This document shows, piece after piece, positions 3,830-64,000 of a DNA stretch of 64,000 nt (positions within the stretch are counted from its first letter, which is position 1; every line of letters begins with the position of its first letter). The position numbers were made by a program, and so were the translations under genes. Source of the DNA: Candidatus Gorgyraea atricola (GTDB lineage Bacteria; Omnitrophota; Gorgyraeia; Gorgyraeales; Gorgyraeaceae); the NCBI GenBank assembly GCA_030765235.1, contig JAVCCW010000010.1:30907-94906 (forward strand), in the 5' to 3' direction. The notes beneath the pieces were generated by a model. The model did not search any database and had not been told where the DNA came from. It worked only from the letters and a program-made list of their open reading frames with translations.

Positions 3830-3890
3830 ACCATACCTCCCCTATGTGCTATATAGCTCAATAATAGGATATATATTATACCTTAAATTA

Positions 3891-4418
3891 TTATCGCTTG
3901 TAAAGTCCGATTAGTTCTGCTTGGGTAAGAATGTGGCCTTGCATTGCCTTTTCAAGATCTCTCTTTCTGGCGTTATCTCGCAGATCGATCTCAGTATCCA
4001 ATGCATACAGCTTGAAGAAGTAGCGGTGTACACCTGAGGGTGGACACGGACCTCCGTAATTTTTTCTACCAAAGTCATTCATGGCCTCTTGCCCTGGGAT
4101 GCTGTTCTCTTCTATGCTGGAGACAACTGGTATGTTGTACACGACCCAGTGCACCCATGTGCCCATTGGCGCGTCTGGATCATCTACTATCAATGCAAGC
4201 GTCTTTGCCTCCCCAGGAACACCCTCAATGACTAGCAAAGGGTTGATGTCTTCGCCCTGACAGGTAAATCTCTTTGGTATAAAACTATTATTTTCAAACT
4301 CAGGGCTGGTAATCTTCATGTCTATAGCCTCCTCTGCTCCACAAGGAGCCATAAATATAAAAATGCCTATAAAAAATACGAAAAGAATTTTATTCATTAG
4401 GCGCAGATAGTATGTCAA
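3891..4418 (-). CDS. YbhB/YbcL family Raf-kinase-inhibitor-like (PEBP) protein, secreted
   Basis: 175 aa; signal peptide; PEBP core motifs DPDAP and GGPCPPSGVHRYFFKLYALD. Confidence 0.7.
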   Translation of the reverse strand: MTYYLRLMNKILFVFFIGIFIFMAPCGAEEAIDMKITSPEFENNSFIPKRFTCQGEDINPLLVIEGVPGEAKTLALIVDDPDAPMGTWVHWVVYNIPVVSSIEENSIPGQEAMNDFGRKNYGGPCPPSGVHRYFFKLYALDTEIDLRDNARKRDLEKAMQGHILTQAELIGLYKR

Positions 4419-8570: not shown

Positions 8571-9644
8571 TTAAAATCCCCAGTTCAGGCTTGTATTAAA
8601 ACTAACGTCAGGGCTGGAGGCAGCGCTGATATTTTCAACAACCGCAAAATTCCACGACACGTCGGTCCTTTCCTTCCACCTATAATTAAAACCCAGGGCC
8701 CAGTCATGCGCGTCATTGTCCAGAGGATTTGTCTGGCTATATGAATAAGGCGTATTGTTGCCGGTCACCTGTGTGACAACAGAAAACCTCTCTGTAAAAA
8801 AATATTCCAGTGCCAGCATGTAAGAATAAAACTCCTGATCGATACCCAGCACTGAGAAAACATCGGGCTTTTCTATTCTCATGACACTGGCACCCGTGTA
8901 GACAAAAAGCCTGTCAAAGAATCTCTTATCTATTAAAATGCCAAAACCATAATCGAATTCGCCGCTCCCGATCAAATCATCCTCATCAGCTGTTGGAAAC
9001 TTGATCGCTGAGCGCACTGATATATTTGGAAAGAGCCAATGCCACTCGCTTTCCCTTAGCAGCTGATATTTAGCAGTTAGCACGACATCACCCAGGCCAT
9101 GCGTAGAAGTCTTTTGTTGTATGAGGTAGTTGCCGGGACCATACTTGAAACTGTAATCGAATTCGTACGACCCTTGACGCTCTCTTGAGCGAGGCGTCCT
9201 TGCTCCAATTCCATCCTCAAAGCCTTCTATAGCATTATCCAGATATCCACTGCACAGGCCTATATAAGGAACCTCTAATCCGATTTCCAGATTATCGTAA
9301 ACACCATACCTGAAATCAAGCGTGATCCTCTGGACCTCTAAGTCGATCTGGATGTCATAAAAAGATGAGATCGGCGTAAACGCGCTTACAGTGATGTTTG
9401 AAACAGTATAATCCGCATCTATTACAAATCTATTTCTCTCTACAACGCTTGCCTTGTCCGGCACCATCTGTAAATAGAAAAGATATAGCGGCATTTGATT
9501 TCGTATGGCTACCGGGCCGATCCCTGATACCTGATAAGATTCCTCATCTTCTTCTGGTTCATATAAATATGCAAAAGCACTGTCCAAAGACAAAAAACAA
9601 CTGACAAAAAACAACACCACGATAGCTGCCAAAAATACCTTCAT
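8571..9644 (-). CDS. Outer-membrane beta-barrel protein (start refined to MKVFLAAIVVLFF... signal peptide), C-terminal NWGF
   Basis: ORF track start at 9785 gives a non-signal N-extension; internal ATG at 9644 gives a classical signal peptide; C-terminal aromatic residue. Confidence 0.45.
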   Translation of the reverse strand: MKVFLAAIVVLFFVSCFLSLDSAFAYLYEPEEDEESYQVSGIGPVAIRNQMPLYLFYLQMVPDKASVVERNRFVIDADYTVSNITVSAFTPISSFYDIQIDLEVQRITLDFRYGVYDNLEIGLEVPYIGLCSGYLDNAIEGFEDGIGARTPRSRERQGSYEFDYSFKYGPGNYLIQQKTSTHGLGDVVLTAKYQLLRESEWHWLFPNISVRSAIKFPTADEDDLIGSGEFDYGFGILIDKRFFDRLFVYTGASVMRIEKPDVFSVLGIDQEFYSYMLALEYFFTERFSVVTQVTGNNTPYSYSQTNPLDNDAHDWALGFNYRWKERTDVSWNFAVVENISAASSPDVSFNTSLNWGF

Positions 9645-9702
9645 CCATAACCTCCGCGATCTTGAAAATGGTCTAATTATATGGTATACTTGTATTAGCC
9701 GA

Positions 9703-9790
9703 TAAGGGCAAACCCTAGAGAAATCAGGGGGCGCAAAGCCAACAGGCCTAAGTCCTTTAAACGGATATGGCGGCTGGGTTGCCAAGCGAT
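9703..9790 (+). ncRNA. Candidate c-di-GMP-I (GEMM) riboswitch aptamer, plus strand, no downstream plus-strand gene
   Basis: GGGCAAACC-cuagaGAAAucaggg-GGCGCAAAGCC followed by a hairpin carrying the canonical 11-nt GAAA tetraloop receptor halves CCUAAG ... UAUGG, then GGGUUGCC. This matches GEMM-I architecture (tetraloop hairpin, ACGCAAAGCC junction, receptor hairpin). Confidence 0.5.
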
Positions 9791-9802: not shown

Positions 9803-11311
9803 CTAATCGCCTTTATCGGCCTTTCTTATTGTCTTCCCCATGATTTCAGAAAACTCATCCTCCAGCACAAAAAAAGGAGCTACGTTGCACCCGGTAAAAC
9901 TCTTTACCTTATCTATTGCCTCAATATCCTTGGGATTTAACATAGCAAGGCTTACTACGTTCTTTTCCTTCTTAACTGGAATTACCCCATAATTCTTGAT
10001 CAAATCAATAGGTATCTTGCTTATAACTGCTTTTAATTCTCCATTCTGCTCTAATCTTCTTACATCAAAATGCGGGACATTCAACTGTGACTCCAGGGCC
10101 CTTGCTATGTCGCCTGAACTCGCCAAGCCAAGACCTACAATGCTCTGACCGATCTTCTGGCCTGTTGACCAATGTTTACTTAAAGCTGCCTCGAGCTGCT
10201 GAGAAGTCAAAACATGTGATTCAACCAGTATCTGGCCCAATGGCTTGTGCCTGAATTCAGGCACCACCTTAGAGGCCTTTTCAGAGACAATAGACTGATG
10301 CGAAGCTAAAAACTCTTTCTTCATCATGGTCCTGCGATTTACAAGAAAATTACTTCCAGGCAAGGCCTTCAGGTATCCCTTTATCTCAGCGATTATCTCC
10401 ATGAGCTCCACGATATTTTGAAATCCATAATCTTTATTATTAGCTATTGCCACAGAAAGGCTCATGAGCGGTGTATTTGTTATGTTGCCCCTTCTATCCT
10501 TTGAAATGATATGGCCCAGACCCCTGTCTTCTTTGGTGTAATGAAAAGGCATAAGCCTGTTAAAGCTCAATATGGACTCCGATGCTATTAATCTGTCGCG
10601 CTCAGGCGTGGTCACCACTACAAAATCATCGCCTCCAATATGCCCCACAAAGTCATCCTTGTTCCCGTATTTCTTAACTGTCCTTGAAACAATATGGGCA
10701 GTCTGGCGAATAACCGCATCGCCCTTCATGTAGTTATATTTGTCATTAAAGGATTTGAAGTTATCAATGTCGTAATACGCGACAGAAAAAATCGCGTCCT
10801 CTTCGATCTTTGACTGGATAACCTTTTCTATGCGTCTATTTCCAGGGAGCCTTGTGAGCGCGTTCGCGTGCAGCTGGTGCGTAGTCCTGCGCAGCGCCAT
10901 TTCCATCCTGACCTCCAGGTCAATAGGATCAGGTGGGTTCGCGATATAATCGTCCACGCCCTGCTCTATCTCGAGCATGCGCTTGCGTATCTGTTTTTTA
11001 TCAATGAGTATTATTACCGGTATGTGTGCGGTAAGAAAATCTTCTTTCAAGACCTTTGAGACCTCGAAACCGTCTATCTTCGGAATATTGCAGTCTATAA
11101 TAATAATATCAGGGTGCGCTCGCCGAACCAGCTCAAGCACAGATGCCCCATCTGAAGCAATAATAACTTCGTAATCCCAAGCATTTAAAAGATAAACAAG
11201 TATATCTACTATCTTTTGCTCATGCTCTGCTAACAATACCTTTTTATTCAGTCCGTTCATAAGATCATTATAACGTACAATATTTCCAAGGTCAACATTT
11301 ACCCCACCCAA
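9803..11311 (-). CDS. Response-regulator receiver + non-canonical GGDEF (GGDDF) + C-terminal MshEN/T2SSE_N (c-di-GMP-binding) domain protein
   Basis: 502 aa; REC with phospho-Asp context IIIIDCNIPKIDG; GGDEF-like domain with GHIGGDDFVV; C-terminus LEAALSKHWSTGQKIGQSIVGLGLASSGDIARALESQLNVPHFD resembles GspE/MshE N-terminal domain. Confidence 0.7.
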   Translation of the reverse strand: MGGVNVDLGNIVRYNDLMNGLNKKVLLAEHEQKIVDILVYLLNAWDYEVIIASDGASVLELVRRAHPDIIIIDCNIPKIDGFEVSKVLKEDFLTAHIPVIILIDKKQIRKRMLEIEQGVDDYIANPPDPIDLEVRMEMALRRTTHQLHANALTRLPGNRRIEKVIQSKIEEDAIFSVAYYDIDNFKSFNDKYNYMKGDAVIRQTAHIVSRTVKKYGNKDDFVGHIGGDDFVVVTTPERDRLIASESILSFNRLMPFHYTKEDRGLGHIISKDRRGNITNTPLMSLSVAIANNKDYGFQNIVELMEIIAEIKGYLKALPGSNFLVNRRTMMKKEFLASHQSIVSEKASKVVPEFRHKPLGQILVESHVLTSQQLEAALSKHWSTGQKIGQSIVGLGLASSGDIARALESQLNVPHFDVRRLEQNGELKAVISKIPIDLIKNYGVIPVKKEKNVVSLAMLNPKDIEAIDKVKSFTGCNVAPFFVLEDEFSEIMGKTIRKADKGD

Positions 11312-34161: not shown

Positions 34162-34171
34162 AGGAGTTAGA

Positions 34172-34226
34172 CCCATCCGACCGCGTAGGTCAGATTTAAA
34201 TCTGACCTACGCGGTCGGATGGGTAG
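34172..34226. repeat. 55-bp perfect palindromic (REP/MITE-like) element, copy 1, intergenic
   Basis: cccatccgaccgcgtaggtcagatttaaatctgacctacgcggtcggatggg; homologous (about 85%) to palindrome at 46129-46184. Confidence 0.7.
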
Positions 34227-35968: not shown

Positions 35969-36044
35969 ATCGCCTATTCTACTATATAACCAATATAGGT
36001 GCAAATATATTATTACATTATTTAAATAATCGCGTTGCTTTTTT

Positions 36045-36312
36045 AAGCTAAATGGAAGGCCTGTTCGCTCAGGTGAAAATTTCCCTCCTCGCTTCGCCCC
36101 GCCCTTTCTACGAAAGGCCGGGGCTTCGCTCGGAAACAGGTCGTCTTTTATTCCGCATTTTGGCGGGACTGAAAAAACTTCACCCACACCATAGGTGTGG
36201 GTGTCGAACAGTTTTCAGCCTTTTGGGCTCATATAATGTGCCAAAGAAACCGCCAAAATGCTACATAAAAGACTAAATTTTCAAATTCGCGCCCAGACCT
36301 TCCATTTAGCTT
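36045..36312 (+). mobile_element. MITE-like element, about 268 bp, family copy 1 (TIR aagctaaatggaaggcctg...; internal hairpins)
   Basis: 23-bp imperfect terminal inverted repeats; shares more than 85% identity with 48841-49096 and, in reverse complement, 50026-50293; contains perfect hairpin cacccacaccataggtgtgggtg; no credible ORF. Confidence 0.6.
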
Positions 36313-36369
36313 AAAAAAGAAAGTTAACTTTACATTTAAAGCAAGACCTTAAAGTGTAAACTTAAGTAT

Positions 36370-37752
36370 TTATATGTCATTGTTATGGAGTGCTGTAATC
36401 TTTTCAACTAGCCCTTGTTCTGGCTTTAGAATCTTAATCCCGTCCTCTGCCGCAGAACCTGTCTGGTCATTAGAAGCTATATTTTGTGAAACTGGAAAAC
36501 TAATTACAACATCTGCCCCTTCCTGATTATTACCCTTGATATCCATGAACACGCCATAGTCTCCAAGTTTATAAATAATTGTAGCTCCTATACCACTACC
36601 TCGTTGCTCTTTTTCAGAATATACACCATTATCACTGAATATAACTTCTACGGCTTTTTCATCCTTTTGTTGTGTGATTTCATTTGTCTTTATGATTATA
36701 ACTCCTTTTTTTATTGATTTTTGTAATAGTCGCTCGATTATAGCTTGTCTTGCATCGTTGATTAAATTTGCCCATACTTGATACATAAAAAGAGAATTTG
36801 TATAGACATGTGGTATATTTTCATCTAGTTCCAACTTTATCTGTGCATACGTATCATTCTTGTATAATTCTACTAATTTCATCAGACTTTCATTGATATC
36901 TACTAGAGTAGTCTCTTTACTTTCTCTTATATATTTTCCTATCTCCTGGAAGATTATAAAATTAATTAATGGGGTATTTATTCTTTCAACATTTTCTCTA
37001 AAAGAGGTAATTTTTTGATTATTCTTGTATTTGTCAAGAAAGGTTTCTGCTTGAGACATAGTATCTAATAGCTCACTATAAAAAGCTATAAAATTATCTA
37101 TTAGAGCTACGATAACTTTAGGATTTAACGATTTTAACTTTTCTAATTTCCTAAAAAGCATATTCCAGTGACTATATGGTTCCTCGTAAGAATCTAATGC
37201 CTTTGACAGCTGGCTAGCTCTTCGAATGTCAACATCCTCTTTCTTCTCAACCAATTCTACTTCTAAAAATTTTCTAATTTCATACGTGTAATTCGTTATC
37301 TGTCCTAAAGTATGCGCGAAATAATAATTCAGAGTTGCTCTTATGGTAGGAAAGGCATCGCTTTTAACTTCGGAATAATCTAAAGAATCCAGCTCAGCAG
37401 AAGCCAAGTTATACAGCATGCCCACTTCTTGCAGCAACTCTCCTGGGCCTGCATCCTCTCTAATAAAATCTGAACTAAGATTAAAATGCTTCAAGACTTT
37501 TGTTGTTAAATACTTTCTAAGTTCTTTATAGTCAATTTGAAGCCACTCTTCCTCCTGATAGGTTTTAAGCTTAGCTATTATCTCTTTTGCCTCTTTTTTT
37601 ATTTTATCTCGGGCAATCTTATTTGCGACTTTGACTTCGTTATCTTTATCGTTTCTTATAGGAACTCTCAGGCAATACGCCTCCTGACACGCCCCTACCC
37701 CTATTAGTATCAATATTAAAGCTATAATGCATTGTTTTCCAATCTTCATCAT
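36370..37752 (-). CDS. Signal-peptide/anchor protein with C-terminal histidine-kinase-like ATPase (HATPase_c) domain; no obvious DHp H-box
   Basis: 460 aa; N-terminal hydrophobic segment then CLRVP motif; C-terminal N-box (ANLINDARQA), G1 (DNGVY) and G2 (GSGIGATI) boxes. Confidence 0.5.
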   Translation of the reverse strand: MMKIGKQCIIALILILIGVGACQEAYCLRVPIRNDKDNEVKVANKIARDKIKKEAKEIIAKLKTYQEEEWLQIDYKELRKYLTTKVLKHFNLSSDFIREDAGPGELLQEVGMLYNLASAELDSLDYSEVKSDAFPTIRATLNYYFAHTLGQITNYTYEIRKFLEVELVEKKEDVDIRRASQLSKALDSYEEPYSHWNMLFRKLEKLKSLNPKVIVALIDNFIAFYSELLDTMSQAETFLDKYKNNQKITSFRENVERINTPLINFIIFQEIGKYIRESKETTLVDINESLMKLVELYKNDTYAQIKLELDENIPHVYTNSLFMYQVWANLINDARQAIIERLLQKSIKKGVIIIKTNEITQQKDEKAVEVIFSDNGVYSEKEQRGSGIGATIIYKLGDYGVFMDIKGNNQEGADVVISFPVSQNIASNDQTGSAAEDGIKILKPEQGLVEKITALHNNDI

Positions 37753-37914
37753 AATCCACCCAAAAAAATCTGCTTCACTGTGCTGCTTTTATGCACAGAT
37801 TTGCAGGAATTTTATATTAATTAGATTATTATAGCATATAAATAGCACCCATGCAAGGCTTTTATGGGATAGTGTATAATATTTGAAGAGTTGCGTTACG
37901 GTTTATTGGGTCTT

Positions 37915-38094
37915 ATGCACCGCCCAGACCACTGGCTCTCGGGGCATACGCCGTGCCGAGCGGGCACGGTGCTAAAGTAGACAAAACAGTCACTGACTGT
38001 TTTGTCTACTTTAGCGAGCGAGGCACGGGGCTGAGCAAAATTCTCACGCTGGGAGAATTTTGCGTCCCCGAGAGCCAGTGGTCTGGGTGGTGCA
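37915..38094. repeat. GC-rich element bounded by 29-bp near-perfect inverted repeats, with three nested internal hairpins (MITE-like or structured RNA)
   Basis: tgcaccgcccagaccactggctctcgggg ... ccccgagagccagtggtctgggtggtgca; internal perfect 21-bp hairpin ctaaagtagacaaaacagtca/tgactgttttgtctactttag; local GC far above window average. Confidence 0.4.
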
Positions 38095-38126
38095 AAGCTG
38101 TCACGTAACATTGAAAATATTACATT

Positions 38127-38226
38127 TATGGGATAAGTGGGGCGCGGGGTGTTCTGTGAGTGGGAGGATCCACACCGGGCGGAGGGGCCCACAAATAGAA
38201 TACCCCGCGCCCCACGATACGGGATT
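38127..38226. repeat. Second GC-rich inverted-repeat element (14-bp arms gtggggcgcggggt / accccgcgccccac) immediately upstream of GT2 gene
   Basis: Perfect 14-bp inverted repeat flanking a 60-nt GC-rich interior with further small hairpins. Confidence 0.3.
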
Positions 38227-45118: not shown

Positions 45119-46776
45119 ATCCTCCTGGATCTTGGAAACCCCACACCCAACAATAATGCCAGATCAATATCTTCGCGGCTACCTACAATCCCCTCTTTTA
45201 AACACAATTCAGCCTGCCTTCTTATGGGGCATAAAAGTCGATTTGCTATGTCTTTTCGTCCGGATGACTGCTGCGTCTTTATTTTATCTCCAAGACCTTG
45301 CTCGAGTATCTCGCTGGCCTTATAGGCCACATCATGGCCGATCTCTTCTAAAAGGCGCAGGGGACCCACTGGCATACCAAAATCCAACATTGCATTCTCA
45401 ATATCCTCTGCATTAAAACCATTTTTCAACATAAAAAGGGCCTCATTTAGATATGGCAGGATCATGCGGTTTACAAGAAATCCGGGACTATCCTTGACCA
45501 CAAGGGGTATCTTTTTGAAGCTGCGCAAAAAGCCAATAGTTGAGCTCAGGACCTCTTTGCTCGTGAATCTCGTGGGAATAACCTCTACCAGCTTCATCTT
45601 ATACGCTGGATTAAAAAAATGCATGCCAATAAAACGCTCGGCATTCCTCAATGATCTTGACAATTCCTCAATAGAAATACACGAGGTATTTGTAGCTATT
45701 ATGCAATCCTTGCGTAACGACTTCTCTATCTGACTAAATAATATCTTTTTCTTTAGCGCATCTTCTATTATAGATTCTATCACTATATCAGTATCCTTGC
45801 ATACACCATTGCCAAATCTTATGTTTTTAATGCTTGGCCTCATGCCCCTGGAAATCGCATCTTTGCATATATTTTTTATATACGGTCTTGCCTTTTTTAA
45901 AACATTCTTATTGGCATCTGTTATATCGACTGGCAATTCTGTCTTTAAGCTTATTAGATAAGCAATATCCCTGCCCATTGTGCCGGCCCCTATAACTGAA
46001 CATCGCTTTAGGCGCGGGCTTAACAACTCAGGACCTTTATATTTATCAACCAACAAATATGAGGATAGCGCATTCTGTGCTGGCGGTTGAAAGATCTTAT
46101 CAATCACCTCTTGTCTCTCGACAGCCTCTACCTGTCCAACCGCGTAGGTTGGATTTAAATCCAACCTACGCGGTTGGACAGGTAGCCTTGCAAGCTTCTC
46201 ATAATCGCATTTTCTTGATTCTGGAATAATCTTGTCTATTATTCCCAGCTCTTTCGCCTCTTTTGCAAAAATCAACTCCCCTTTATCCATAAGAGAATCT
46301 GCTCTCTTTGATCCTATCTTTTCTTTTAATCTATGAGGACCGCCAAAACCAGGCGAGATGCCTAATTTTACCTCTGGGAGCCCGATCTTCACTCTCTTGT
46401 TTGTAGTAGCAAGTATATGGTCACAAGAGAGCGCCAGTTCCATGCCGCCACCGACACAAGCACCATCTACTATAGTAAAAGTCGGCATCTTTAAGTCAGC
46501 TATTTTGCTAAATAGCCTTTGCCCATTTTTACAAAAACTAACCACCTCTTTTTCTGTACGCATGGCAGCAAGCTCTTTAATATCTGCGCCCGCGATAAAG
46601 ACATTCTGCTTCTTGCTCGTGAAAAACAATGCGCGAAGTTCGACTTTATTACTTGTAACGCTATCTATGATACTCTCAAGCTGCTTGAAATTTTCTTTGG
46701 ATAACAGGTTTACCTCTGAATCAGGATCATTAAACTCTATAACACCCATATCATCTTTTTTGTAATAGGAGATCAT
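45106..46776 (-). CDS. FadB-like bifunctional enoyl-CoA hydratase / 3-hydroxyacyl-CoA dehydrogenase, with 18-aa in-frame palindrome-encoded insert in the interdomain linker
   Basis: 556 aa; crotonase fold N-terminus (FIAGADIKEL, GGGMELAL), 3HCDH NAD-binding VIGAGTMGRDIA; residues PVQPRRLDLNPTYAVGQV are the direct translation of the 46129-46184 palindrome. Confidence 0.75.
   Translation of the reverse strand: MISYYKKDDMGVIEFNDPDSEVNLLSKENFKQLESIIDSVTSNKVELRALFFTSKKQNVFIAGADIKELAAMRTEKEVVSFCKNGQRLFSKIADLKMPTFTIVDGACVGGGMELALSCDHILATTNKRVKIGLPEVKLGISPGFGGPHRLKEKIGSKRADSLMDKGELIFAKEAKELGIIDKIIPESRKCDYEKLARLPVQPRRLDLNPTYAVGQVEAVERQEVIDKIFQPPAQNALSSYLLVDKYKGPELLSPRLKRCSVIGAGTMGRDIAYLISLKTELPVDITDANKNVLKKARPYIKNICKDAISRGMRPSIKNIRFGNGVCKDTDIVIESIIEDALKKKILFSQIEKSLRKDCIIATNTSCISIEELSRSLRNAERFIGMHFFNPAYKMKLVEVIPTRFTSKEVLSSTIGFLRSFKKIPLVVKDSPGFLVNRMILPYLNEALFMLKNGFNAEDIENAMLDFGMPVGPLRLLEEIGHDVAYKASEILEQGLGDKIKTQQSSGRKDIANRLLCPIRRQAELCLKEGIVGSREDIDLALLLGVGFPRSRRIWEA
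46129..46184. repeat. 56-bp perfect palindromic (REP/MITE-like) element, copy 2, inside FadB-like CDS in frame
   Basis: tacctgtccaaccgcgtaggttggatttaaatccaacctacgcggttggacaggta; same family as 34172-34226 (shared core ccgcgtaggt-N-gatttaaatc-N-acctacgcgg). Confidence 0.7.
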
Positions 46777-46901: not shown

Positions 46902-47312
46902 CTACCCAACCAACTTATATACTGCGTCGTGCTCCCTGGTCCTGACCTTTACCTTAATGCCTATTTCCTGTCCTACAGAAGCGCTTGCAATGGGAGCGCG
47001 GTCAAGCTGCATAGAATCTACCTTTTCCTTAAATTCAGTTGTGTGGCCTTTAATGACAATAGTATCCCCTTCGGCAAGCGAGCCTTTGGTCAGCTTTATA
47101 ACAGCTGCTTCAACATGGCCAAAATAATGAGTCACTATTCCGATCTCTTCCAGAGACATGCCAGCAGGTATAGAGATCTTAGATTTTGCCTTTTTCTTCT
47201 TGGCAACCTTTCTCTTTGACTTCCTTACAGCCTTCTTTTTCTTCTTCCGCTTTACTACCTTCTTCTTCCTGGCCACTTTTTTCTTGACCTTTCCCTTCTT
47301 CTTTTTCTTCAT
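46902..47312 (-). CDS. Lysine-rich (histone H1-like) N-terminal tail fused to small beta-barrel domain (EF-Tu domain-2-like)
   Basis: 136 aa; first 45 residues are almost entirely K/R/A/V; C-terminal 85 aa resemble translation-elongation-factor-like beta-barrel proteins; ATGA overlap with upstream LOG gene. Confidence 0.35.
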   Translation of the reverse strand: MKKKKKGKVKKKVARKKKVVKRKKKKKAVRKSKRKVAKKKKAKSKISIPAGMSLEEIGIVTHYFGHVEAAVIKLTKGSLAEGDTIVIKGHTTEFKEKVDSMQLDRAPIASASVGQEIGIKVKVRTREHDAVYKLVG

Positions 47313-47975: not shown

Positions 47976-48776
47976 TCAATGTAGCTCTACCGGTTTGTTC
48001 ATATAATCCGTATAATCGATCTCTCCTGTCAGCTCCTGTTTGACCATGCGTATACGATCAGCAATATGCGGGTGAGAGCGATAACTTCTATGCGGCCTTA
48101 TTGGTGCTTCTCTGTTCACCTCTTGCATCTTTTTTAAAAAACTCAGCATTGCCATGGGATCAAAGCCTGCGGCCTTTAGATATTTGATCGCGATCCTGTC
48201 TGCAAGCGCCTCATCTTCTCGAGAGTACTCCATGACCAGCTGGCCAAAGGCTGCATTGATCCTGCCATAGTCCTGAGCGCCCTGGCCTGAAAAAACCATG
48301 AGTAGCTGCAGTATATTAAATCCCACGCCGCCTTGCAATCTTTTCATGGAGTGTCTTGCTACGACATGCGCCACTTCATGAGCCATTACTGACGCCAGCT
48401 CATCATCTGTCTCGACCTTTTCCATAAGTCCTCTAAAAATAAATATATACCCGCCTGGCAATGCAAACGCATTGACATCATCATCATCTATCACCCTAAA
48501 CGTATAATTTACCTCCTGCCTATCAGAAACAGCAGCAATCCTCCTGCCAAGTTCTCTTAGGCGCTCTGCCTCCAGCGGATCCGGGTCTAATTCAATATCC
48601 GGATTCTTCTCAATACTATTCGCGATACTCCTACCCATGTTTATTTCACTCTCAGTGCTCACAAACATAATATCATCCCTACCCGTAACAGCATTATACT
48701 CACGCTCCACGCACCCAGCCAATAAACACACACATAGCACCAATATATACTTCATATAGACATAAGTGTATGCCAT
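47976..48776 (-). CDS. M48-family Zn-metalloprotease lipoprotein (BepA/HtpX-like)
   Basis: 266 aa; lipobox LLAGC; HEVAHVVARH (HExxH) motif plus downstream Glu. Confidence 0.75.
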   Translation of the reverse strand: MAYTYVYMKYILVLCVCLLAGCVEREYNAVTGRDDIMFVSTESEINMGRSIANSIEKNPDIELDPDPLEAERLRELGRRIAAVSDRQEVNYTFRVIDDDDVNAFALPGGYIFIFRGLMEKVETDDELASVMAHEVAHVVARHSMKRLQGGVGFNILQLLMVFSGQGAQDYGRINAAFGQLVMEYSREDEALADRIAIKYLKAAGFDPMAMLSFLKKMQEVNREAPIRPHRSYRSHPHIADRIRMVKQELTGEIDYTDYMNKPVELH

Positions 48777-48840
48777 AAAGGCCCAATCGTCAAATATATT
48801 TTTATTGAAGTTTTATTATGCCTAGATAGGTCGAGTTGTA

Positions 48841-49096
48841 AAGCTAAAAGGAGGCCTGTTCGCTCAGGGGAAAATTTCCCTCCTCGCCCCGCCCTTTCTA
48901 CGAAAGGGCGGGACTCGGAAACAGGTCGCCTTTCATTTTGCATTTTGGTGGGGCCGAAAAAACTTCACCCACACCATAGGTGTGGGTGTCGAACAGTTTT
49001 CGGCCTTTTTGTCTCATAGAATGTGACAAAATAAACCACCAAAATGCAAAATGAAAGACTAAATTTTCAATTCGCGAACAGGCCTCCTTTTAGCTT
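48841..49096 (+). mobile_element. MITE-like element, family copy 2 (perfect 23-bp TIR aagctaaaaggaggcctgttcgc)
   Basis: Same family as 36045-36312; perfect terminal inverted repeats; internal hairpins ccccgccctttc-uacg-gaaagggcgggg and cacccacaccataggtgtgggtg. Confidence 0.65.
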
Positions 49097-49125
49097 TACA
49101 AAGTAAGCGTACCTAAATAGGGTGT

Positions 49126-50022
49126 CTATAAAAAACTCAGTGCTTTTTTTGATTTAGTATTTAATATTTTGCCAATAAAGCCTCTTGCTCCTGTCATATC
49201 TTTTACTATAGAAGCATAATTAAATTCACTTATGAAAGGAGCTGTATTTATTGCCGCATTACGCAGTCTCTTTGTTTCCTCTTTTGATGGACGGGTTTCC
49301 TTCCAAATATTCTTAATGATTCCTGCAAGATGGGGTGTAAAGTTGCTTCTTATAAAATCTCCCACTTCTTTTTTACTGCGAATTATTGCTGTAATATACA
49401 TTATAACCTCATCTTCATCTAAGCCAAAGAACTCCATTAACTGATAAATCTGGCCAAATGAAGAAGGATCAGATCTAGCTAATTTTTCCCATCTTAAATG
49501 CATTCTTTCATGCCACAGTAAAGACATGACTATTTCTTCTAATGTCCTGTTCCAACTACTAGAATTAACCTCTACTTTTATCCAATCAGGATTTAACACT
49601 TTAGAAGCTTTAAAAAAACATCCATCCCCCTTTTTATATAGCTCTAACAATTTAGATGCCCCTGGCAACCTCAAGGCAGACGCTTTGTTAAGGAGTGACA
49701 ATATCTCTTTATTTTCAACTGAATCTTCTGAGGCTGTTTTTTCTGAAATTGCTAGTGCAGTATTGCTTTCGCTTCCTAAGTTTAATAGCGAGAAAAGCTG
49801 GTCCGTAACCACATAGGTCTTGAAAGGAGAATCTGTACGAACTTGGTGTATTAACTTCTCCTCCGACGGAATACTTGGCGAGTCATTTTTATCATCCTGC
49901 TCGAAATTCAGAGGAACTCTTAGGCAATCTGCGTCGATCGAATACGCTGGATTTGGGCACAAAAATGCTCCTATTAATGTAAATAGCAAGGCTATATGAT
50001 TTACCTTTCTCATATAGATCAT
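49126..50022 (-). CDS. Secreted hypothetical protein (signal peptide + CLRVP motif), bracketed by inverted MITE copies
   Basis: 298 aa; N-terminal signal peptide; shares post-signal CLRVP motif with 36370-37752 product; no recognised domain. Confidence 0.4.
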   Translation of the reverse strand: MIYMRKVNHIALLFTLIGAFLCPNPAYSIDADCLRVPLNFEQDDKNDSPSIPSEEKLIHQVRTDSPFKTYVVTDQLFSLLNLGSESNTALAISEKTASEDSVENKEILSLLNKASALRLPGASKLLELYKKGDGCFFKASKVLNPDWIKVEVNSSSWNRTLEEIVMSLLWHERMHLRWEKLARSDPSSFGQIYQLMEFFGLDEDEVIMYITAIIRSKKEVGDFIRSNFTPHLAGIIKNIWKETRPSKEETKRLRNAAINTAPFISEFNYASIVKDMTGARGFIGKILNTKSKKALSFL

Positions 50023-50025
50023 CTT

Positions 50026-50293
50026 AGCCCAAACAAGGAGGCCTGGGAGCGAATTGAAAATTTAGCCTTTTATGTAGCATTTTGGCGGTTTCTATGGCTC
50101 ATTATATGAGCCCAAAAGGCTGAAAACTGTCCGACACCCACACCTATGGTGTGGGTGGAGTTTTTTCAGTCCCGCCAAAATGCGGAATAAAAGGCGACCT
50201 GTTTCCGAGCCCCGTCCTTTTGGCTAAAAGCCAAAAGGACGGGGCGAGGAGGGAAATTTTCCCCTGAGCTCCCAGGCCTTCTTGTTTGGGCGA
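50026..50293 (-). mobile_element. MITE-like element, family copy 3, inverted orientation (TIR cccaaacaag[ag]aggcctgggagc)
   Basis: Reverse complement aligns along its length to copies 1 and 2; one internal hairpin is remodelled with compensatory changes (ccccgtccttttggc-uuuua-gccaaaaggacgggg). Confidence 0.6.
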
Positions 50294-50302
50294 CACAGGT
50301 AA

Positions 50303-52445: not shown

Positions 52446-54995
52446 TTACATTACTTCAATTATAGGAACTGGAGTTGCATTTACTGTGGCCACCAGCGTA
52501 TCAACTGCAGTATTGCACTCAGTACCTGAATCATCCTTAACTGTTAGAACCACTTTATAAAGGCCTATGCCCTTGTAAGCATGCCTTACCTTTGTCCCTT
52601 GCGCAGTTTGGCCATCACCAAAATCCCATGTATACGTAAGGTTATCATTATCTGGATCAAATGAATCTGACGCATCAAATTCAACCTCGTCATTAACGCA
52701 GATCAAAAGATCCCCGCCAGCCTCTGCTACAGGAGGTGTGTTTACGTTAAGGTAATGCACCTTTGTCGAGCCTGAGCAATCTGAATTTTTACCATCATCA
52801 ACAAACAGCGTTGCTTTATAGAGCCCACCCTTTGCATAATTATGCTTTACGTTAGCTCCGCTTTCAGTAGTACCATCGCCAAAATCCCAAACATAATCCA
52901 GCTTATCTCCGTCAGGATCGTTCGATAACGCGCCGTCAAACTTTATCCCCTCGTCAACACAGGCAATGTCCTTAGAGCTTATGTCTGCGGTGGGATTGGA
53001 GTTGACATTCACTGAAATGGCATCTGTCGCGCTTGAACACTCTGCGCCAGCACCATCATCTACCTTAAGAGTAGCATTATAAAGGCCTCCTTTTGCATAC
53101 TGATGAGAGACCTTTTTTCCTCTGGCTGTTTTTCCATCGCCAAAATCCCATAGATAGCTAAGAGTATCCCCGTCATTGTCAAACGACAAAGAGGCATCAA
53201 ACTCTGCCTTCTCTGTCAGGCATATGTTTATATCGTTTCCTGCGTTAGCCATTGGCGCCCTGTTTAAGTTAACAAGCTTTGTCGCAGTTGACTTATTGCA
53301 ATCTGTATAGGTATTGTCGGTAACAAGGAGTTTAGTCGCGTACTCTCCGCCCCTTTCATACCTATGAGTGACTACCTTGCCTTCCTCTGTCTCGCCATCA
53401 CCGAAATCCCAGACATAAGTCAGATTATCATTATCCGCGTCCTTTGACTTTGACGCGTCAAAAGTGACTTCCAGGGGATCATTAGGATCTTTCTTGCACA
53501 ACATTATATCTTTACCCGCGTCAGCGATAGGTGCGGTATTTACTGCTACATTTAATCTATCCACGCCTGTATCGCACATGGTCCCTGAATCATCGACTAC
53601 AGTAAGCGCGACTTGATAATCTCCGCCTTTAGCGTATTTATGAGAGACCTTTACGCCTTCAGCTGTCTCGCCATCGCCAAAATTCCATTTGTATGTCAGA
53701 TTATCTTCGGGACTATCTGTTGACTGTGTGCCATCGAATAGTATCTCTGTATCAACACAGGTCACATTAGGGCCGTCTGCTATAGCGCATGGCGGCTGAT
53801 TGACTTTTACGACCTGCTGAGTCGAAGCTGTATTACAATCCACCTCTGAGGCATCTGTAACTGTCAGCTTGACAAGATATTTTCCAGCATCCTTATAGGT
53901 ATGCATGTTCTTTAACTGTGTGCTGGTAGTACCATCACCAAAATCCCAGAAATACGCAAGGGTCTGATCATCTGGATCGTAAGACTTTGAACCATCAAAT
54001 GTAAATGTATTACATGAAAGCTTTGACTCCATCCATGGCTCTTCCTTTGCCTTAGCCTTAGTAGGCCGCTCAACAAAGACCCTCTTAGGTCCTCCTGCGC
54101 CAGGTGTAAAAAATACAGGAACTGCCGCGCCATCGCCTGTTGTCAGATACATCGCCATGTTTGCATTGGGCTGCCTGTCCTTTGTTATTTCATATACCCA
54201 TCTCTTGCCAGCATCAGATGGCAGAACATCTACTTCAGTATTTGCCCATATGCCGGTCCCAGAACCTTTTATACTGTAAGAACGAGATGCGCTTACGAGC
54301 TCTATATCTCCTCCGGTCGCGTCCAGATCATAATTGTACTCGATTATCTTTGCCGCGTCCGCGGGTATTGCGGGATAAAGCGCCATCTTTGTTCCGCGCT
54401 TCTCTGATAGTCTTAATGAAAGCGCGTAGCTGAATGCCTCCATTGTATCCGGTGATATCTCAAGGGCAAAGACATTGTTGTCATCCCCTGACAGCCCTTC
54501 AGCAACTATCTTAAAATATCTGAAATTTCCTACTTTCTCACCCTTGTCCGCTTCTATAGGAGAAAAGTGATAAAACTTTTTGTCATAGGATTCATCTTCT
54601 CCGAACTCCTGGGAATCCAGAAGCGTACCTTCAAGAAAATCTACGATCTTTGCCTCGCTTATCCCTGCTATGGATGAATACGCTTTCTTTCCGCCAAAAA
54701 TAGAAAAGCGGGTCGAGGTATTCCATTTTCCACTCTTTTCATCAATATAATCACCGACATCAGGATCATAGATGGATATTTCTATGTTACCAGTGTAATT
54801 CTCAGGAACTCTCAAGAATACGACTTGGGGCGCCTTTTTTGCGCCATAACTTTTTCTTCCATCCTCGCCAAAGGTATATAAATACCTGAGCTTACTCTCT
54901 TCTGGTGGTATTCTATAGCAAAGAGCATCCTTTACTATAGCAAAGCTTAAAAACAACACTGATGCGATTATGATATGCAATGTCTTCCTGCACAT
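52446..54995 (-). CDS. Secreted protein with at least seven tandem PKD domains
   Basis: 849 aa; signal peptide; repeated [YT]xWDFGDG[TQE]T blocks at about 85-95 aa spacing. Confidence 0.75.
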   Translation of the reverse strand: MCRKTLHIIIASVLFLSFAIVKDALCYRIPPEESKLRYLYTFGEDGRKSYGAKKAPQVVFLRVPENYTGNIEISIYDPDVGDYIDEKSGKWNTSTRFSIFGGKKAYSSIAGISEAKIVDFLEGTLLDSQEFGEDESYDKKFYHFSPIEADKGEKVGNFRYFKIVAEGLSGDDNNVFALEISPDTMEAFSYALSLRLSEKRGTKMALYPAIPADAAKIIEYNYDLDATGGDIELVSASRSYSIKGSGTGIWANTEVDVLPSDAGKRWVYEITKDRQPNANMAMYLTTGDGAAVPVFFTPGAGGPKRVFVERPTKAKAKEEPWMESKLSCNTFTFDGSKSYDPDDQTLAYFWDFGDGTTSTQLKNMHTYKDAGKYLVKLTVTDASEVDCNTASTQQVVKVNQPPCAIADGPNVTCVDTEILFDGTQSTDSPEDNLTYKWNFGDGETAEGVKVSHKYAKGGDYQVALTVVDDSGTMCDTGVDRLNVAVNTAPIADAGKDIMLCKKDPNDPLEVTFDASKSKDADNDNLTYVWDFGDGETEEGKVVTHRYERGGEYATKLLVTDNTYTDCNKSTATKLVNLNRAPMANAGNDINICLTEKAEFDASLSFDNDGDTLSYLWDFGDGKTARGKKVSHQYAKGGLYNATLKVDDGAGAECSSATDAISVNVNSNPTADISSKDIACVDEGIKFDGALSNDPDGDKLDYVWDFGDGTTESGANVKHNYAKGGLYKATLFVDDGKNSDCSGSTKVHYLNVNTPPVAEAGGDLLICVNDEVEFDASDSFDPDNDNLTYTWDFGDGQTAQGTKVRHAYKGIGLYKVVLTVKDDSGTECNTAVDTLVATVNATPVPIIEVM

Positions 54996-60085: not shown

Positions 60086-60162
60086 TGGCGTCCCTAAGAG
60101 GATTCGAACCTCTGGCCCCAAGTTTAGGAAACTTGTGCTCTATCCATCTGAGCTATAGGGAC
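60086..60162 (-). tRNA. tRNA-Arg (anticodon CCU), CCA encoded
   Basis: Manual fold: acceptor GUCCCUA/UAGGGAC 7/7 bp, D-arm GCUC-AGAUGGAUA-GAGC, anticodon arm CAAGU-UUCCUAA-ACUUG, T-arm AGAGG-UUCGAAU-CCUCU, discriminator G + CCA. Confidence 0.85.
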
Positions 60163-60295
60163 ACATTAGTACCAGCACAGGAATGCAACTTGCCTGCCCC
60201 GTTCCAAATTCTTAAAGGTCATCAAGTAATCTATAATAATTGGCCTCTACAAATTTACAAATAACTAATAACTTACCGCTCAGAATTTGGAATGG

Positions 60296-60324
60296 GGTGC
60301 TCTATCCATCTGAGCTACAGGGAC
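60296..60324 (-). other. Duplicated 5' fragment of tRNA-Arg (27/27 nt identical through the D-arm, then diverges), separated from the intact gene by a 16-bp inverted repeat pair
   Basis: Minus strand reads GUCCCUGUAGCUCAGAUGGAUAGAGCACC...; inverted repeats cccgttccaaattct (60197-60212) and agaatttggaatgggg (60281-60296). Confidence 0.5.
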
Positions 60325-60349: not shown

Positions 60350-60432
60350 TTGTGTAATGTTGAATGTGTAATGTGTAATGAACCAAGTTGCCCCAATTAC
60401 ATTACACTTTACACCTTACACATTACACAAAC
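60350..60432. repeat. GTGTAATG hairpin repeat, copy A (between apt stop and tRNA region)
   Basis: tgtgtaatgtgtaatgaaccaag..ccccaattac...cttacacattacacaa; same motif as 61797-61865. Confidence 0.5.
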
Positions 60433-60949: not shown

Positions 60950-61834
60950 TTAGTACTCTCCTAACTCGCCGCTTTGTTGGATAATATATATTCTTAATTT
61001 TTCCAACGCAGCGCTTTCGATCTGCCTGACTCTTTCACGCGTTATGCCAAAGACCTTTGCTGCCTCGCCAAGCGTATGAGTAGTGCCGTCATTCAAACCA
61101 AAACGCAAACCCAGTATCTTCTTCTCTCTGTCATTCATGCGGCTCAACAGGCTCTCGACTCTTTCTCGGCGTAATTTTTCTGTTATGTTCTCCATAGGAG
61201 ATGTGCTTGTCTCATCCTGTATAAGATCCATGAACTGCCCTGTGCCATCATCACCGATAGGCGCGTCCAGCGAAGAGATCTTTGTGGCTATCTCACTTAT
61301 CTCTCTTACCTTTTTCATCGGAAGCCGCATCTTTTTTGCAACCTCTTTTACCTTGGGCCGCCTGCCGTATTTCTGGGTCAGCTGTTCAGTTATTCTTTTC
61401 CACCTGTTTATTATCTCTGTCATGTAAACAGGTATCCTTATTGTCTTGCCCTGATTCGCAATGGCACGCGTTATGTATTGCTTTATCCACCAAGCACCAT
61501 ATGTGCTGAACCTGTAACCTCTATGAGGGTTGAATTTTTTAACTGCCTTAATAAGGCCAAGATTTCCCTCCTCTATAAGGTCCATCATTGGAACACCCAG
61601 CTTTGAGTATCGCTTAGCAATATTAATCACGAGCCTCAAATTAGACTGGATCATTTTCCTGCGCGCCTTGGCATCGCCTCTCTTGACTTTACGCGCAACA
61701 GATTGTTCTCCTTCAGGAGTAAGAAGAGGTATATCCTTGATCGCCCTCAAATAAAGTTTTATTGCATCCACTGTGTACCTCTCTTGCTTTCGACGTTTGT
61801 GTAATGTGTAATGTTTAATGTGTAATGAAACCAA
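60950..61834 (-). CDS. RNA polymerase sigma factor, sigma-70 family (short RpoD/RpoS-like; regions 1.2, 2, 3, 4)
   Basis: 294 aa (TTG start in track; true start uncertain); region 2 LIEEGNLGLIKAVKKFNPHRGYRFSTYGAWWIKQYI; region 4 HTLGEAAKVFGITRERVRQIE. Confidence 0.8.
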   Translation of the reverse strand: MVSLHIKHYTLHKRRKQERYTVDAIKLYLRAIKDIPLLTPEGEQSVARKVKRGDAKARRKMIQSNLRLVINIAKRYSKLGVPMMDLIEEGNLGLIKAVKKFNPHRGYRFSTYGAWWIKQYITRAIANQGKTIRIPVYMTEIINRWKRITEQLTQKYGRRPKVKEVAKKMRLPMKKVREISEIATKISSLDAPIGDDGTGQFMDLIQDETSTSPMENITEKLRRERVESLLSRMNDREKKILGLRFGLNDGTTHTLGEAAKVFGITRERVRQIESAALEKLRIYIIQQSGELGEY

Positions 61835-61865
61835 GCAACCCCAATTACCTTACACATTACACAAG
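61797..61865. repeat. GTGTAATG hairpin repeat, copy B (overlaps annotated start of sigma-factor gene; downstream of ppdK stop)
   Basis: ttgtgtaatgtgtaatgtttaatgtgtaatgaaaccaagcaaccccaattaccttacacattacacaa; arms tgtgtaatgtgtaatg / cttacacattacacaa. Confidence 0.5.
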
Positions 61866-61870
61866 ATACG

Positions 61871-64000
61871 TTATTTCCCGTTAAGCAAGGCTGCTTGAGC
61901 AGCTGCTAGCCTTGCGATAGGCACCCTGTAAGGAGAACAGCTCACGTAGTTCATGCCAACGTTATGACAGAACTTAACTGATCTTGGCTCTCCGCCGTGC
62001 TCTCCGCAGATACCGATCTTGAGTTTCTTGCGAGCTTCTCTTCCGAGCTTGATGCCCATCTTAATAAGAGAACCTACGCCTTCCTGATCGACTGATTGAA
62101 AAGGATCCTCAGGCAAGATCTTTTTGTTTATATAGTCCGGCAAAAATACACCTGCGTCATCACGGCTGTAACCAAACGTCATCTGAGTCAGATCGTTTGT
62201 GCCGAATGAGAAGAACTCTGCCTTTTCAGCGATCTTATCAGCTATTAATGCCGCGCGCGGGATCTCTATCATCGTACCTACAAGATAATTTACTTTCTTT
62301 TTTGCCTTTTTAATTACTGCCTTGGCTGTTTCGCGGACAATAGGTTCAAGAAAATCAAACTCCGCCTTTGTCCCCACCAGAGGTATCATTATCTCGGGCA
62401 AGACTTTTATGCCTTTTTTTGCCATATTGCAGGCTGCCTCCATGATCGCCCTTGTCTGCATGACGCAGAGCTCAGGATATGTGACAGATAGCCTACATCC
62501 ACGATGACCCAGCATAGGATTCATCTCATGCAGGCTCTTAACAAGATCTTTTATCCTGGCAGGTGTTTGCTTTAATCTCCTTGCCATTTCCTTTATGCCT
62601 GACTCATTGTTCGGCAGGAATTCATGTAGCGGTGGATCCAGTAACCTTATAGTAACAGGCAATCCATCCATCTCCTTAAATATGCCCTCAAAATCCTTTC
62701 TCTGAAAAGGCAACAGTTTCTTAAGCGCCTTTTCCCTTGCCTCTTTGTCCTGGGCAAGAATAAACTCCCTGACAGCCCATATCCTTTCGCCTTCAAAAAA
62801 CATATGCTCTGTCCTGGTAAGGCCTATGCCTTCAGCGCCAAGCCTGCGCGCAGCCAGAGAATCCCTTGGTGTATCTGAATTCGTGCGCACATTTATCTTG
62901 CGATACTTATCAGCCCATTCCATGATCTGGTTGAACATTTTATAAATTTCGCTCTTCTTTGCTGAGGAGTTTTCTTCTACTACTCCTGCAATAACAGGAC
63001 TCGAGGAAACCTTGATATCTCCCAGCATGACTTCCCCAGTCGAACCATCCAGAGAAATAAAATCACCTTCCTTTATCGTCTTTCCAGCAACCCTTATCTC
63101 TTTCTTTGTATAATCAATATTTAACGCGCTGCATCCAGCTATACAGCATTTTCCCCAGCCCCTGGCAACAACAGCAGCATGAGAAGTCATGCCTCCAGTT
63201 GATGTCAATATCCCTACTGCGGCATGCATACCCGCGACATCTTCAGGAGATGTCTCGTGCCTGACCAGGATAACCTTTTTGCCTTTACTCTTCCATACTT
63301 CAGCATCCCTTGCAGTAAATACTACCTGGGCTGATGCTGCGCCAGGACCAGCAGGAAGGCCTTTAGCAACTACAGTAGCATTGGATTTTGCCTTGGGTTC
63401 AAATATAGGGAAAAGAAGCTGATTGAGCTGATCCCCCTCTATCCTCATAATGGCTTCTTTAGGGCTGATCATTTTTTCTTTTACCATGTCGTACGCTATC
63501 TTTACAGCTGCCAGGCCTGTACGTTTGCCAGTGCGCGTCTGCAGCATGTAAAGCGTGCCTTCCTGGATAGTGAATTCCACGTCCTGTATATCCTTATAAT
63601 GCCTCTCTAGCTTATACCTGATAGCATCGAGCTCTTTGTAAACTTTTGGCATTTCTTTTTTCAAGTCGCTGATTGGCTCTGGCGTCCTTATGCCAGCCAC
63701 GACGTCTTCGCCCTGCGCATTTATAAGAAACTCCCCGAAAAATTTATCCTCGCCAGTAGATGGGTTACGCGTAAAGGCAACGCCTGTGCCTGAAGTATTG
63801 CCCATGTTACCGAATACCATTGCCTGGACATTTACAGCTGTTCCGAAAAGTCCGGTGATCCTGTTGATCCTCCTGTAAACTACAGCCCTTTCTGTATTCC
63901 ATGATCCGAATACCGCCTTTACAGTAGCCATCAGCTGATCCTTGGCATTATTTGGAAAAGGTTTTTTGACATGTTTCTCATACACCTTTTTATATTCTCC
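61871..64000 (-). CDS. ppdK: Pyruvate, phosphate dikinase (C-terminal about 710 aa; N-terminus beyond window end)
   Basis: Phospho-histidine motif [22 protein letters not shown]; PEP-utilising TIM barrel; ORF-track Met at 63985 is internal, frame stays open to the window edge. Confidence 0.85.

Follow-up and report, generated by a model that had tools for sequence, protein, structure and literature searches.

Here we analyse a 1.45-kb segment of Candidatus Gorgyraea atricola (Omnitrophota) in which two inverted copies of a large intergenic repeat, designated PE-A, bracket a single gene for a secreted protein (the cargo gene). The window, by which we mean the whole stretch of DNA analysed, comprises 64,000 nucleotides (nt) of a 174-kb contig from a metagenome-assembled genome (MAG); its GC content is 41% and nearly all of its genes lie on the minus strand. 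An earlier note on this DNA had described the segment as a composite-transposon-like cassette. Our comparisons point elsewhere: the segment is probably one allele of a lineage-specific hypervariable slot, the spacers of which were colonised independently by PE-A, itself part of a community of palindromes that resembles the BIMEs of enterobacteria. As read from aligned relatives, the cargo gene was not moved by the two repeat copies, and the pair did not arrive together.

For comparison, 161 kb of related sequence was examined. L001 and L002 come from an Omnitrophota single-cell genome, L003 to L008 are six metagenome contigs, and L009, L010 and L011 are an Omnitrophica MAG (GCA_018818505.1) and metagenome contigs. 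The features of the segment are listed here, with the structure-bearing strand of a repeat copy being the reverse complement of its consensus '+' orientation.

48765-48793, minus strand: promoter-like sequence of the M48 peptidase gene, TTGACG-17-TACACT
48798-50302: hypervariable slot, with the conserved 692-aa gene on one side and the M48 promoter on the other
48836-49101: PE-A copy w2, consensus '+' on the window plus strand, structure-bearing strand minus (the gene strand)
48966-48988, minus strand: apex hairpin of w2, with a 10-bp stem, 7 GC pairs and a 3-nt loop; on the gene strand, AAGTTTTTTC comes next
49126-50022, minus strand: cargo gene, an ORFan for a secreted protein, 298 aa long if translation starts at the ATG at 50022 and 295 aa if it starts at 50013
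49904-50013, minus strand: conserved leader, a signal peptide plus AYS-xD-x-CLRVPLNF, the sole part of the gene common to the L009 and L017 alleles
50027-50291: PE-A copy w3, inverted relative to w2, structure-bearing strand plus
50135-50157, plus strand: apex hairpin of w3 with its T6, on the strand antisense to the genes

The 692-aa to M48 interval differs between relatives

Repeat finding and alignment identified three PE-A copies in the window (w1, w2 and w3), and a profile search of the 64 kb matched exactly these and no others. The geometry given in the earlier note was confirmed: w2 and w3 bracket the minus-strand open reading frame (ORF) 49126-50022, and their inverted arms are complementary over 141 nt (84%), 57 nt (86%) and 50 nt (90%). 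The outer stem of w2 lies 24 nt past the stop codon, or about 30 nt when measured from the conserved core. On the other side, w3 fills the spacer from the stop of the 692-aa gene (50303) to the start of the ORF, with a gap of 4 nt to the ATG at 50022 and of 13 nt to the ATG at 50013. The second ATG is probably the true start, since the NCBI model (P0001) begins there and since the first ATG of the corresponding gene in L017 is followed by an in-frame stop.

The slot is bounded by two conserved genes, one encoding a 692-aa metallophosphoesterase/CcdA-like protein and the other an M48 peptidase, whose promoter-like sequence is kept in all relatives and outgroups and forms the fixed right edge. 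L009, L010 and L011 are syntenic with the window at 86-92% nucleotide identity, with genes for a PKD protein, the 692-aa protein, a leader-bearing protein, M48 and LOG. Homology between L009 and the window breaks off at 50302, at the stop of the 692-aa gene, returns for the leader alone (49989-49904, 92%), ending exactly after CLRVPLNF, and returns again at 48797, directly upstream of the M48 promoter. The L009 allele has an orthologous leader and an unrelated body; no PE-A was found in L009 by alignment or profile search, and the position of w3 is occupied there by another palindromic element, el#2. Because this leader homology with relatives persists inside the 1.45-kb unit, the unit is not one inserted block.

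A third allele is present in L017/L018, where the flanks are 89% identical to those of the window. It has the same leader, remains homologous to about residue 60, and then continues into a third unrelated body; the right boundary of the slot is 48797 here, as in L009. Its upstream spacer keeps the outer arms specific to w3 (GCCCAAACAAGG.../...CCTTGTTTGGGC), which in L017 read GCCCAAACAAGGAGG... and ...CCTCCTTGTTTGGGC-TAAG-ATG, around a different interior, a hairpin related to window 38137-38215. No PE-A was found downstream of the L017 leader gene. In four relatives that are more distant, at 64-68% protein identity, only 50-104 nt separate the adjacent 692-aa and M48 genes, and the CLRVP gene is absent. 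These alignments indicate that the slot arose in the lineage of the window, that the w3 arms are older than the divergence of the window from L017, and that w2 is private to the window, where it is paired with a private gene body. The two copies differ in age because L017 keeps the arms of w3 and has no downstream copy.

Same-family copies in inverted orientation around a single low-GC ORFan that is missing from outgroups are what a transposon of the Tn5/Tn10 type would look like, with the two copies jointly moving the gene between them, and the adjacency of all three window copies to CLRVP genes speaks for the same idea. The cargo is indeed foreign in composition, with GC of 0.36 and GC at third codon positions (GC3) of 0.31 versus neighbours at GC 0.40-0.45 and GC3 mostly 0.40-0.47 (range 0.33-0.51). 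We nevertheless consider a composite transposon very improbable. No direct repeats surround the unit (GGTCGAG lies left of w2, GACACAG right of w3), and no target-site duplication was found there or at any of 11 PE-A copies. Among the window ORFs of at least 120 aa that were scanned with Pfam, there was no transposase, integrase, recombinase or reverse-transcriptase domain, and no insertion sequence (IS) that could be the parent of PE-A was found in the 161 kb of related sequence. The leader within the unit is orthologous to those of L009 and L017, and w2 and w3, at 81.6% identity, are the least similar pair among the window copies. Each has better matches than the other: w2 shares 90-91% identity with the L004 and L005 copies, and w3 is nearest to the L006 copy and w1, which places them in different PE-A sub-lineages on sequence identity.

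The proposal that the repeat pair mobilises the gene fails on the same comparisons, as does that of a cassette recurring elsewhere or present and absent as a block. The leader occurs without this repeat in L009, the w3 arms occur alone in L017, and against 5.8 billion protein clusters the cargo matched only itself and P0002, which is similar over the first ~45 residues only. In addition, PE-A copies in L002 to L006 and at the w1 locus of L001 and L008 have no such gene adjacent. A leader gene at the same locus without PE-A, together with PE-A copies elsewhere without the gene, is essentially the pattern that the earlier note had itself set against its reading. For annotation, a false mobile-element call is removed.

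A conserved leader precedes unrelated protein bodies

The N-terminus of the cargo protein has a hydrophobic core, LLFTLIGAFLC, followed by AYS and then CLRVP, and by inspection it looks like a candidate signal peptide. In a six-frame search of the window, CLRVP was found only in this ORF and in ORF 36370-37752, the gene beside w1; the shared signal peptide and motif noted previously were thus borne out, the signal peptide again by inspection. The features around this second gene are as follows.

36035-36322: PE-A copy w1, consensus '+' on the window plus strand, structure-bearing strand minus; it lies 47 nt downstream of the second CLRVP gene
36370-37752, minus strand: second CLRVP gene, an ORFan of 460 aa, absent from the syntenic loci of L001 and L008
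37916-38094: el#2 palindromic element, a second family, upstream of the second CLRVP gene
38137-38215: palindromic hairpin; a single relative was detected, as the interior of the chimeric element that occupies the w3 position in L017

Like the cargo, the second gene is low in GC (0.34, with GC3 of 0.29). Pfam gave nothing usable for either protein, and a homologue search with ORF 36370-37752 matched only itself. Near residues 171-175 of the cargo we noticed, by inspection, the sequence HERMH; HExxH is a motif typical of zinc metalloproteases. An AlphaFold2 model of the cargo made without an alignment was uninformative, with a predicted local distance difference test (pLDDT) score of 39.7.

An exhaustive search with the 48-residue leader returned another four proteins (252-677 aa) that begin in the same way and continue into unrelated bodies; in these the pattern is a hydrophobic core, AYS/AYA, and x-D-x-x-[C/S]-LRVP-[L/V]. 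A protein of L001 carries the variant DLRVPL. A leader of ~45 aa is thus present on at least eight unrelated bodies of 244-677 aa (window 49904-50013, window 37660-37752, P0002, P0105, P0108, P0109, P0110 and L001 2369-3292), with the wider pattern x-D-x-x-[C/S/D]-LRVP-[L/V/I]. Possibly it is a signal, not described before, by which secreted proteins of Omnitrophota are sorted or processed. Such a secretion leader, fused to diverse unrelated bodies, is the most interesting by-product of this work; in the passages of an Omnitrophota genome survey that concern signal peptides, palindromes, MITEs (miniature inverted-repeat transposable elements) and transposons, there is no mention of a CLRVP leader with swapped ORFan bodies.

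A conserved N-terminus, a sharp junction (here CLRVPLNF) and unrelated, swapped C-terminal bodies recall polymorphic toxin loci such as CdiA-CT after VENN, Rhs and MafB. The likeness ends there, as the constant part is only a ~45-aa secretion leader and neither an immunity gene nor orphan cassettes were seen. The exchange, at a fixed slot, of strain-specific ORFan bodies behind a common leader is the signature of a fast-evolving repertoire of secreted effectors, which bears on the partner interactions of ultra-small, host-dependent bacteria.

These alleles also bring to mind a cassette-exchange platform, by analogy with integrons, in which the fixed leader would serve for expression and secretion and the palindromes would be single-strand recombination sites at which ORFan bodies are swapped. 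The three slot alleles have one leader and the same outer boundaries in common while their bodies are unrelated, the spacer behind the body differs from allele to allele and is mostly palindrome-rich, and one breakpoint falls exactly after CLRVPLNF. A leader remnant also lies upstream of another LRVP gene in L001. As in an integron cassette (ORF plus attC), a variable ORF that lacks a promoter has behind it an imperfect palindrome whose structure counts on one strand. Still, we rate this as improbable. No integrase or recombinase was found among the scanned window ORFs or at the related loci, and the breakpoint in L017 lies elsewhere (~residue 60), as ordinary homologous recombination predicts. 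Leader genes at other loci (L019 to L021) lack PE-A, and PE-A copies elsewhere lack such genes. Neither an IntI gene nor R/L core sites were found; the window has no tyrosine recombinase, and the PE-A termini are unlike attC cores, as judged by inspection only and with no formal motif search. PE-A also differs from attC sites in being conserved in sequence and much longer, and in occurring far from variable genes. A broader form of the idea, in which a host-dependent Omnitrophota clade uses the ~45-aa CLRVP[L/V]N leader as a fixed platform for swapped ORFan effector bodies at hot spots, with PE-A and el#2 as sites of single-strand recombination or insulation, is a similarly long shot. If true, it would amount to an integron-like or polymorphic-effector-like system without a known recombinase.

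PE-A is a family of large, strand-specific palindromes

At least 12 copies of PE-A are present in several genomes. Each is non-coding, 265-290 nt long, and consists of a long imperfect palindrome with side hairpins, giving a branched structure of about 12 helices. The termini (AAGCTAAAAGGAAGGCCTG...) are inverted repeats of 41-48 nt. The MITE label of the earlier note therefore holds in part: PE-A is a real multi-copy, MITE-like palindromic family, small and non-coding with terminal inverted repeats, and it departs from MITEs in having no target-site duplication at the 11 copies. The two strands of w2 fold with minimum free energies of -152 and -162 kcal/mol, and z relative to shuffles is about -17.7 for both; the other window copies likewise fold with z of about -17.7. 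In an alignment of nine copies, 98% of cells are paired. Compensated double changes occur in 23 of 93 pairs, as opposed to 10.9 +/- 2.0 in column shuffles (0 of 500 reached the observed value) and 1-5 pairs in controls with slid partners; nine covarying pairs lie in internal helices, where the alignment is unambiguous.

The fold is biased toward one strand. When folds without GU pairs were considered in the '+' orientation, isolated mismatches within helices were A.C in 15 cases and G.T in 1, and the A.C mismatches of the '+' strand are wobble pairs on the reverse-complement strand. RNA of the reverse complement was more stable in 11 of 11 copies, and the consensus fold reaches -118.6 kcal/mol on that strand versus -102.1 kcal/mol on the other. 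Since w3, which lies the opposite way round in the genome, shows an identical bias relative to the element, the bias is a property of PE-A and not a replication-strand mutation bias. The fold of PE-A matters in the single-stranded form of one particular strand, as RNA or single-stranded DNA, and its strand-specific covariation makes PE-A a tractable case for asking in which of these two forms such repeats act. Unpaired tracts are invariant across the 12 aligned copies. The copies are also mosaics, in which variants of hairpins and stems are reassorted.

Two proposals were rejected. One was a small ORF within PE-A, as its ORFs are short and hairpin insertions and deletions would disrupt any frame. 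The other was that the copy-specific outer stems stem from insertion into palindromes already present in the host; these stems are homologous to one another, all being variants of AAGCYAAAAGG. Public genomes and metagenomes were scanned with one exact motif each (the invariant apex motif), and PE-A was found only in L001, L002 and L003 to L008; viral contigs and plasmid and phage collections gave no match. Rfam, searched at gathering thresholds and at permissive E-values, returned only generic hairpin matches far below gathering scores. PE-A is a new, clade-restricted and unusually large branched family within the bacterial intergenic palindromic repeats. With it, large structured repeats of a previously undescribed family are recorded for a phylum that is known from metagenomes alone, and repeats of this type can disrupt assemblies and mimic RNA genes.

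Among known systems, the intergenic palindromes of the REP/BIME, ERIC and Correia types come nearest to PE-A in behaviour. REP/BIME sequences of enterobacteria are extragenic palindromes of clustered types that lack target duplications, occur in both orientations and are often found at the 3′ ends of genes; their hairpins, of 20-40 nt with a GTAG signature, stabilise or end transcripts. PE-A resembles them in its lack of target duplications, in occurring in both orientations, and in clustering with other palindromes (el#2, el#4 and hp60197) in shared spacers. It differs in its length, its branched ~12-helix fold and its lack of GTAG, and the only RAYT found, in L001, has REPs of its own. With REPIN-RAYT systems PE-A shares the absence of target-site duplications and a hairpin favoured on one strand (A.C to G.T of 15:1), while a cognate RAYT flanked by PE-A was not found. 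ERIC/IRU, Correia (CREE) and pneumococcal RUP, BOX and SPRITE elements are small non-coding hairpin repeats in untranslated regions (UTRs) that can supply terminators, promoters or RNase sites; BOX is modular, and Correia and RUP are IS-derived with target duplications (TA for Correia). PE-A is likewise a small non-coding repeat that forms a hairpin over its whole length, but it has no target duplication, is two to three times longer than these families, and shows strand-specific wobble.

PE-A carries a terminator-like apex in mixed orientations

In every copy, the apex of PE-A forms a hairpin followed by AAG-U6 on the structure-bearing strand, and the GAAAAAACT tract is unchanged in 12 of 12 copies. 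The apex hairpin of w2 looks like an intrinsic terminator. For w1 and w2, both of which lie directly downstream of CLRVP genes, the structure-bearing strand is the gene strand; w3 has the opposite, weak-terminator orientation. It had been suggested that the repeats provide terminators and promoters to the genes that they flank. The first half of this suggestion stands to the extent that w2 places a terminator-like hairpin with T6 downstream of the cargo. As to the second half, no promoter-like site was found on the gene strand inside w3 or between the 692-aa gene and the CLRVP ORF, nor was a conserved promoter found beside PE-A in the aligned copies.

The terminator-like apex and the covariation raise the question of whether PE-A is mainly a host-functional structured RNA kept by selection, such as a UTR element acting in cis or a small RNA that serves as a stabiliser, processing site or conditional terminator. 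Compensatory changes in unambiguous helices, wobble almost confined to one strand, invariant unpaired tracts and an apex hairpin with U6 in all copies each agree with this, and one copy, in the spacer between GT2 and PMT genes, is kept in three genomes and changes about as slowly as its flanks (w1 and its L008 counterpart are 87.6-89% identical, the flanks 90%). Against a mainly host-functional role are the absence of a conserved promoter and of an Rfam match, a truncated relic in L013 (only a 52-nt fragment of the right end), the replaced interior in L017, and the orientation of the 11 copies relative to neighbouring genes, which is mixed (about 4 sense, 4 antisense and 3 in divergent spacers). 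By this last test, a one-way terminator role was not established. Positional counterparts can also be less alike than copies that are not orthologous: w1 is 70% identical to its L001 counterpart (L001b) and 94% identical to the non-orthologous L006 copy, which suggests conversion or turnover. We regard a mainly host-functional RNA as unlikely, less so than either the transposon or the exchange platform, and it is not exclusive of a hypervariable slot colonised by PE-A.

On our preferred reading of independently colonised spacers, the slot would hold a secreted ORFan gene that retains an opening stretch of ~45 codons (signal peptide plus CLRVP[L/V]N), while the body is replaced through recombination among close relatives and the two spacers become occupied independently by members of PE-A. 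PE-A itself would spread or be exchanged as the single-stranded hairpin of one strand, as single-stranded DNA or RNA, and its copies would often recombine with each other. The relics, the mosaicism, the fold specific to one strand and the missing target duplications all fit a non-autonomous element for which this form is the one moved or converted. Once resident, copies could act as transcript-end or insulating hairpins. In such a scheme the gene strand at w1 and w2 would carry an apex hairpin and U6 just past the CLRVP genes, and w3, in its weak-terminator orientation, would let transcription of the 692-aa gene reach the promoterless CLRVP ORF. This read-through expression would end at w2, before the conserved M48 promoter. 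A host-level role of this kind is plausible and compatible with the slot.

All three PE-A copies of the window lie in the four spacers that flank its two CLRVP genes, which is more than expected by chance (p = 1.8e-4 over 52 gaps; p = 4.9e-3 when the 18 gaps of at least 40 nt are counted). Even so, PE-A occurs without leader genes and leader genes occur without PE-A. Most simply, PE-A and CLRVP-leader genes both accumulate in the same permissive, recombination-prone spacers.

Several observations weigh against the reading that we favour. The contact of all three copies with CLRVP genes leaves room for a link beyond a shared permissive region. For none of the PE-A copies did we find a clean pair of filled and empty sites, so that its mobility is something we infer, and within the 161 kb of related sequence there was no autonomous partner element or enzyme. 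The mixed orientation does not fit a dedicated one-way terminator. Lastly, covariation in the outermost helix may be partly inflated by register shifts of the alignment that are mirrored in both arms.

Possible turnover at the w1 locus

The spacer between the GT2 and PMT genes contains PE-A in the window (w1), L001 and L008, and the 460-aa CLRVP gene is present at this locus in the window only; window 36369-38225 corresponds to ~198 nt in L001. Between the divergent GT2 and PMT-like glycosyltransferase genes, the whole intergenic block of ~500 nt, made up of PE-A, el#4 and a small hairpin, has opposite orientations in L008 (2294-2805) and L001 (7254-7753), with colinear flanks, which recalls an invertible promoter region. 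Elsewhere in L001, at 2320-2361, a remnant of 13 codons (MMRIGKGQNLCWG*) of the leader of the window 460-aa gene lies upstream of a different LRVP gene and looks like the footprint of an earlier gene replacement.

PE-A shares its spacers with other palindromes

At least five types of palindromic sequence, including PE-A, pile up in the same intergenic regions, and four of them were seen in more than one copy. The neighbours of PE-A are el#2, hp60197 and el#4, each found at several loci, a REP-like CGCGTAGGT palindrome, and the hairpin at 38137-38215. These types adjoin PE-A in L001 to L008, where el#2, el#4 and hp60197 co-occur with it, and one sits within the PE-A copy L001a.

L001 encodes a RAYT-type Y1 transposase (3525-4145), flanked by 27-nt, perfectly complementary REPs (GTAGGGTGTCCCCAAATGGGACGTCCC) that read GTAGGGTGTCCCC... 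and are unrelated to PE-A. This enzyme was rejected as the mobiliser of PE-A, since it is the sole RAYT found, it has its own unrelated REPs, and none was found in the window. As an observation in its own right, L001 3446-4172 shows that this Omnitrophota single-cell genome has a classic REP-RAYT module, which adjoins an LRVP gene.

REP-like perfect palindromes with the core CGCGTAGGT...ACCTACGCG are found at 34171-34224 and 46128-46185 in the window, at 3384-3422 and 9381-9435 in L017, and at 4935-4975 in L001; the presence or absence of this family differs between the window and L017. Further hairpin repeats lie near a tRNA-Arg gene (60086-60162), at 60197-60297, 60350-60430 and 61797-61873. 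One family among them, CCCCGTTCCAAATTC..., also occurs inside the PE-A copy L001a, in L004 and in L009, and the remaining hairpins are TGTGTAATG-rich inverted repeats.

Other features of the window

A cyclic di-GMP-I riboswitch match (68.8 bits) lies on the plus strand at 9697-9786. Its neighbours are on the minus strand, a DUF3187 gene (8571-9785) and a gene for a GGDEF response regulator (9803-11311), and no plausible plus-strand ORF follows the match. The gene at 52446-54995 encodes an 849-aa protein with six tandem PKD domains, which account for 261-nt periodic DNA repeats at 52612-54000. Finally, 46902-47312 encodes a 136-aa protein with an extremely lysine-rich N-terminal half (MKKKKKGKVKKKVARKKK...) and a fold like that of EF-Tu domain 2, and this gene is kept beside the LOG gene in relatives.

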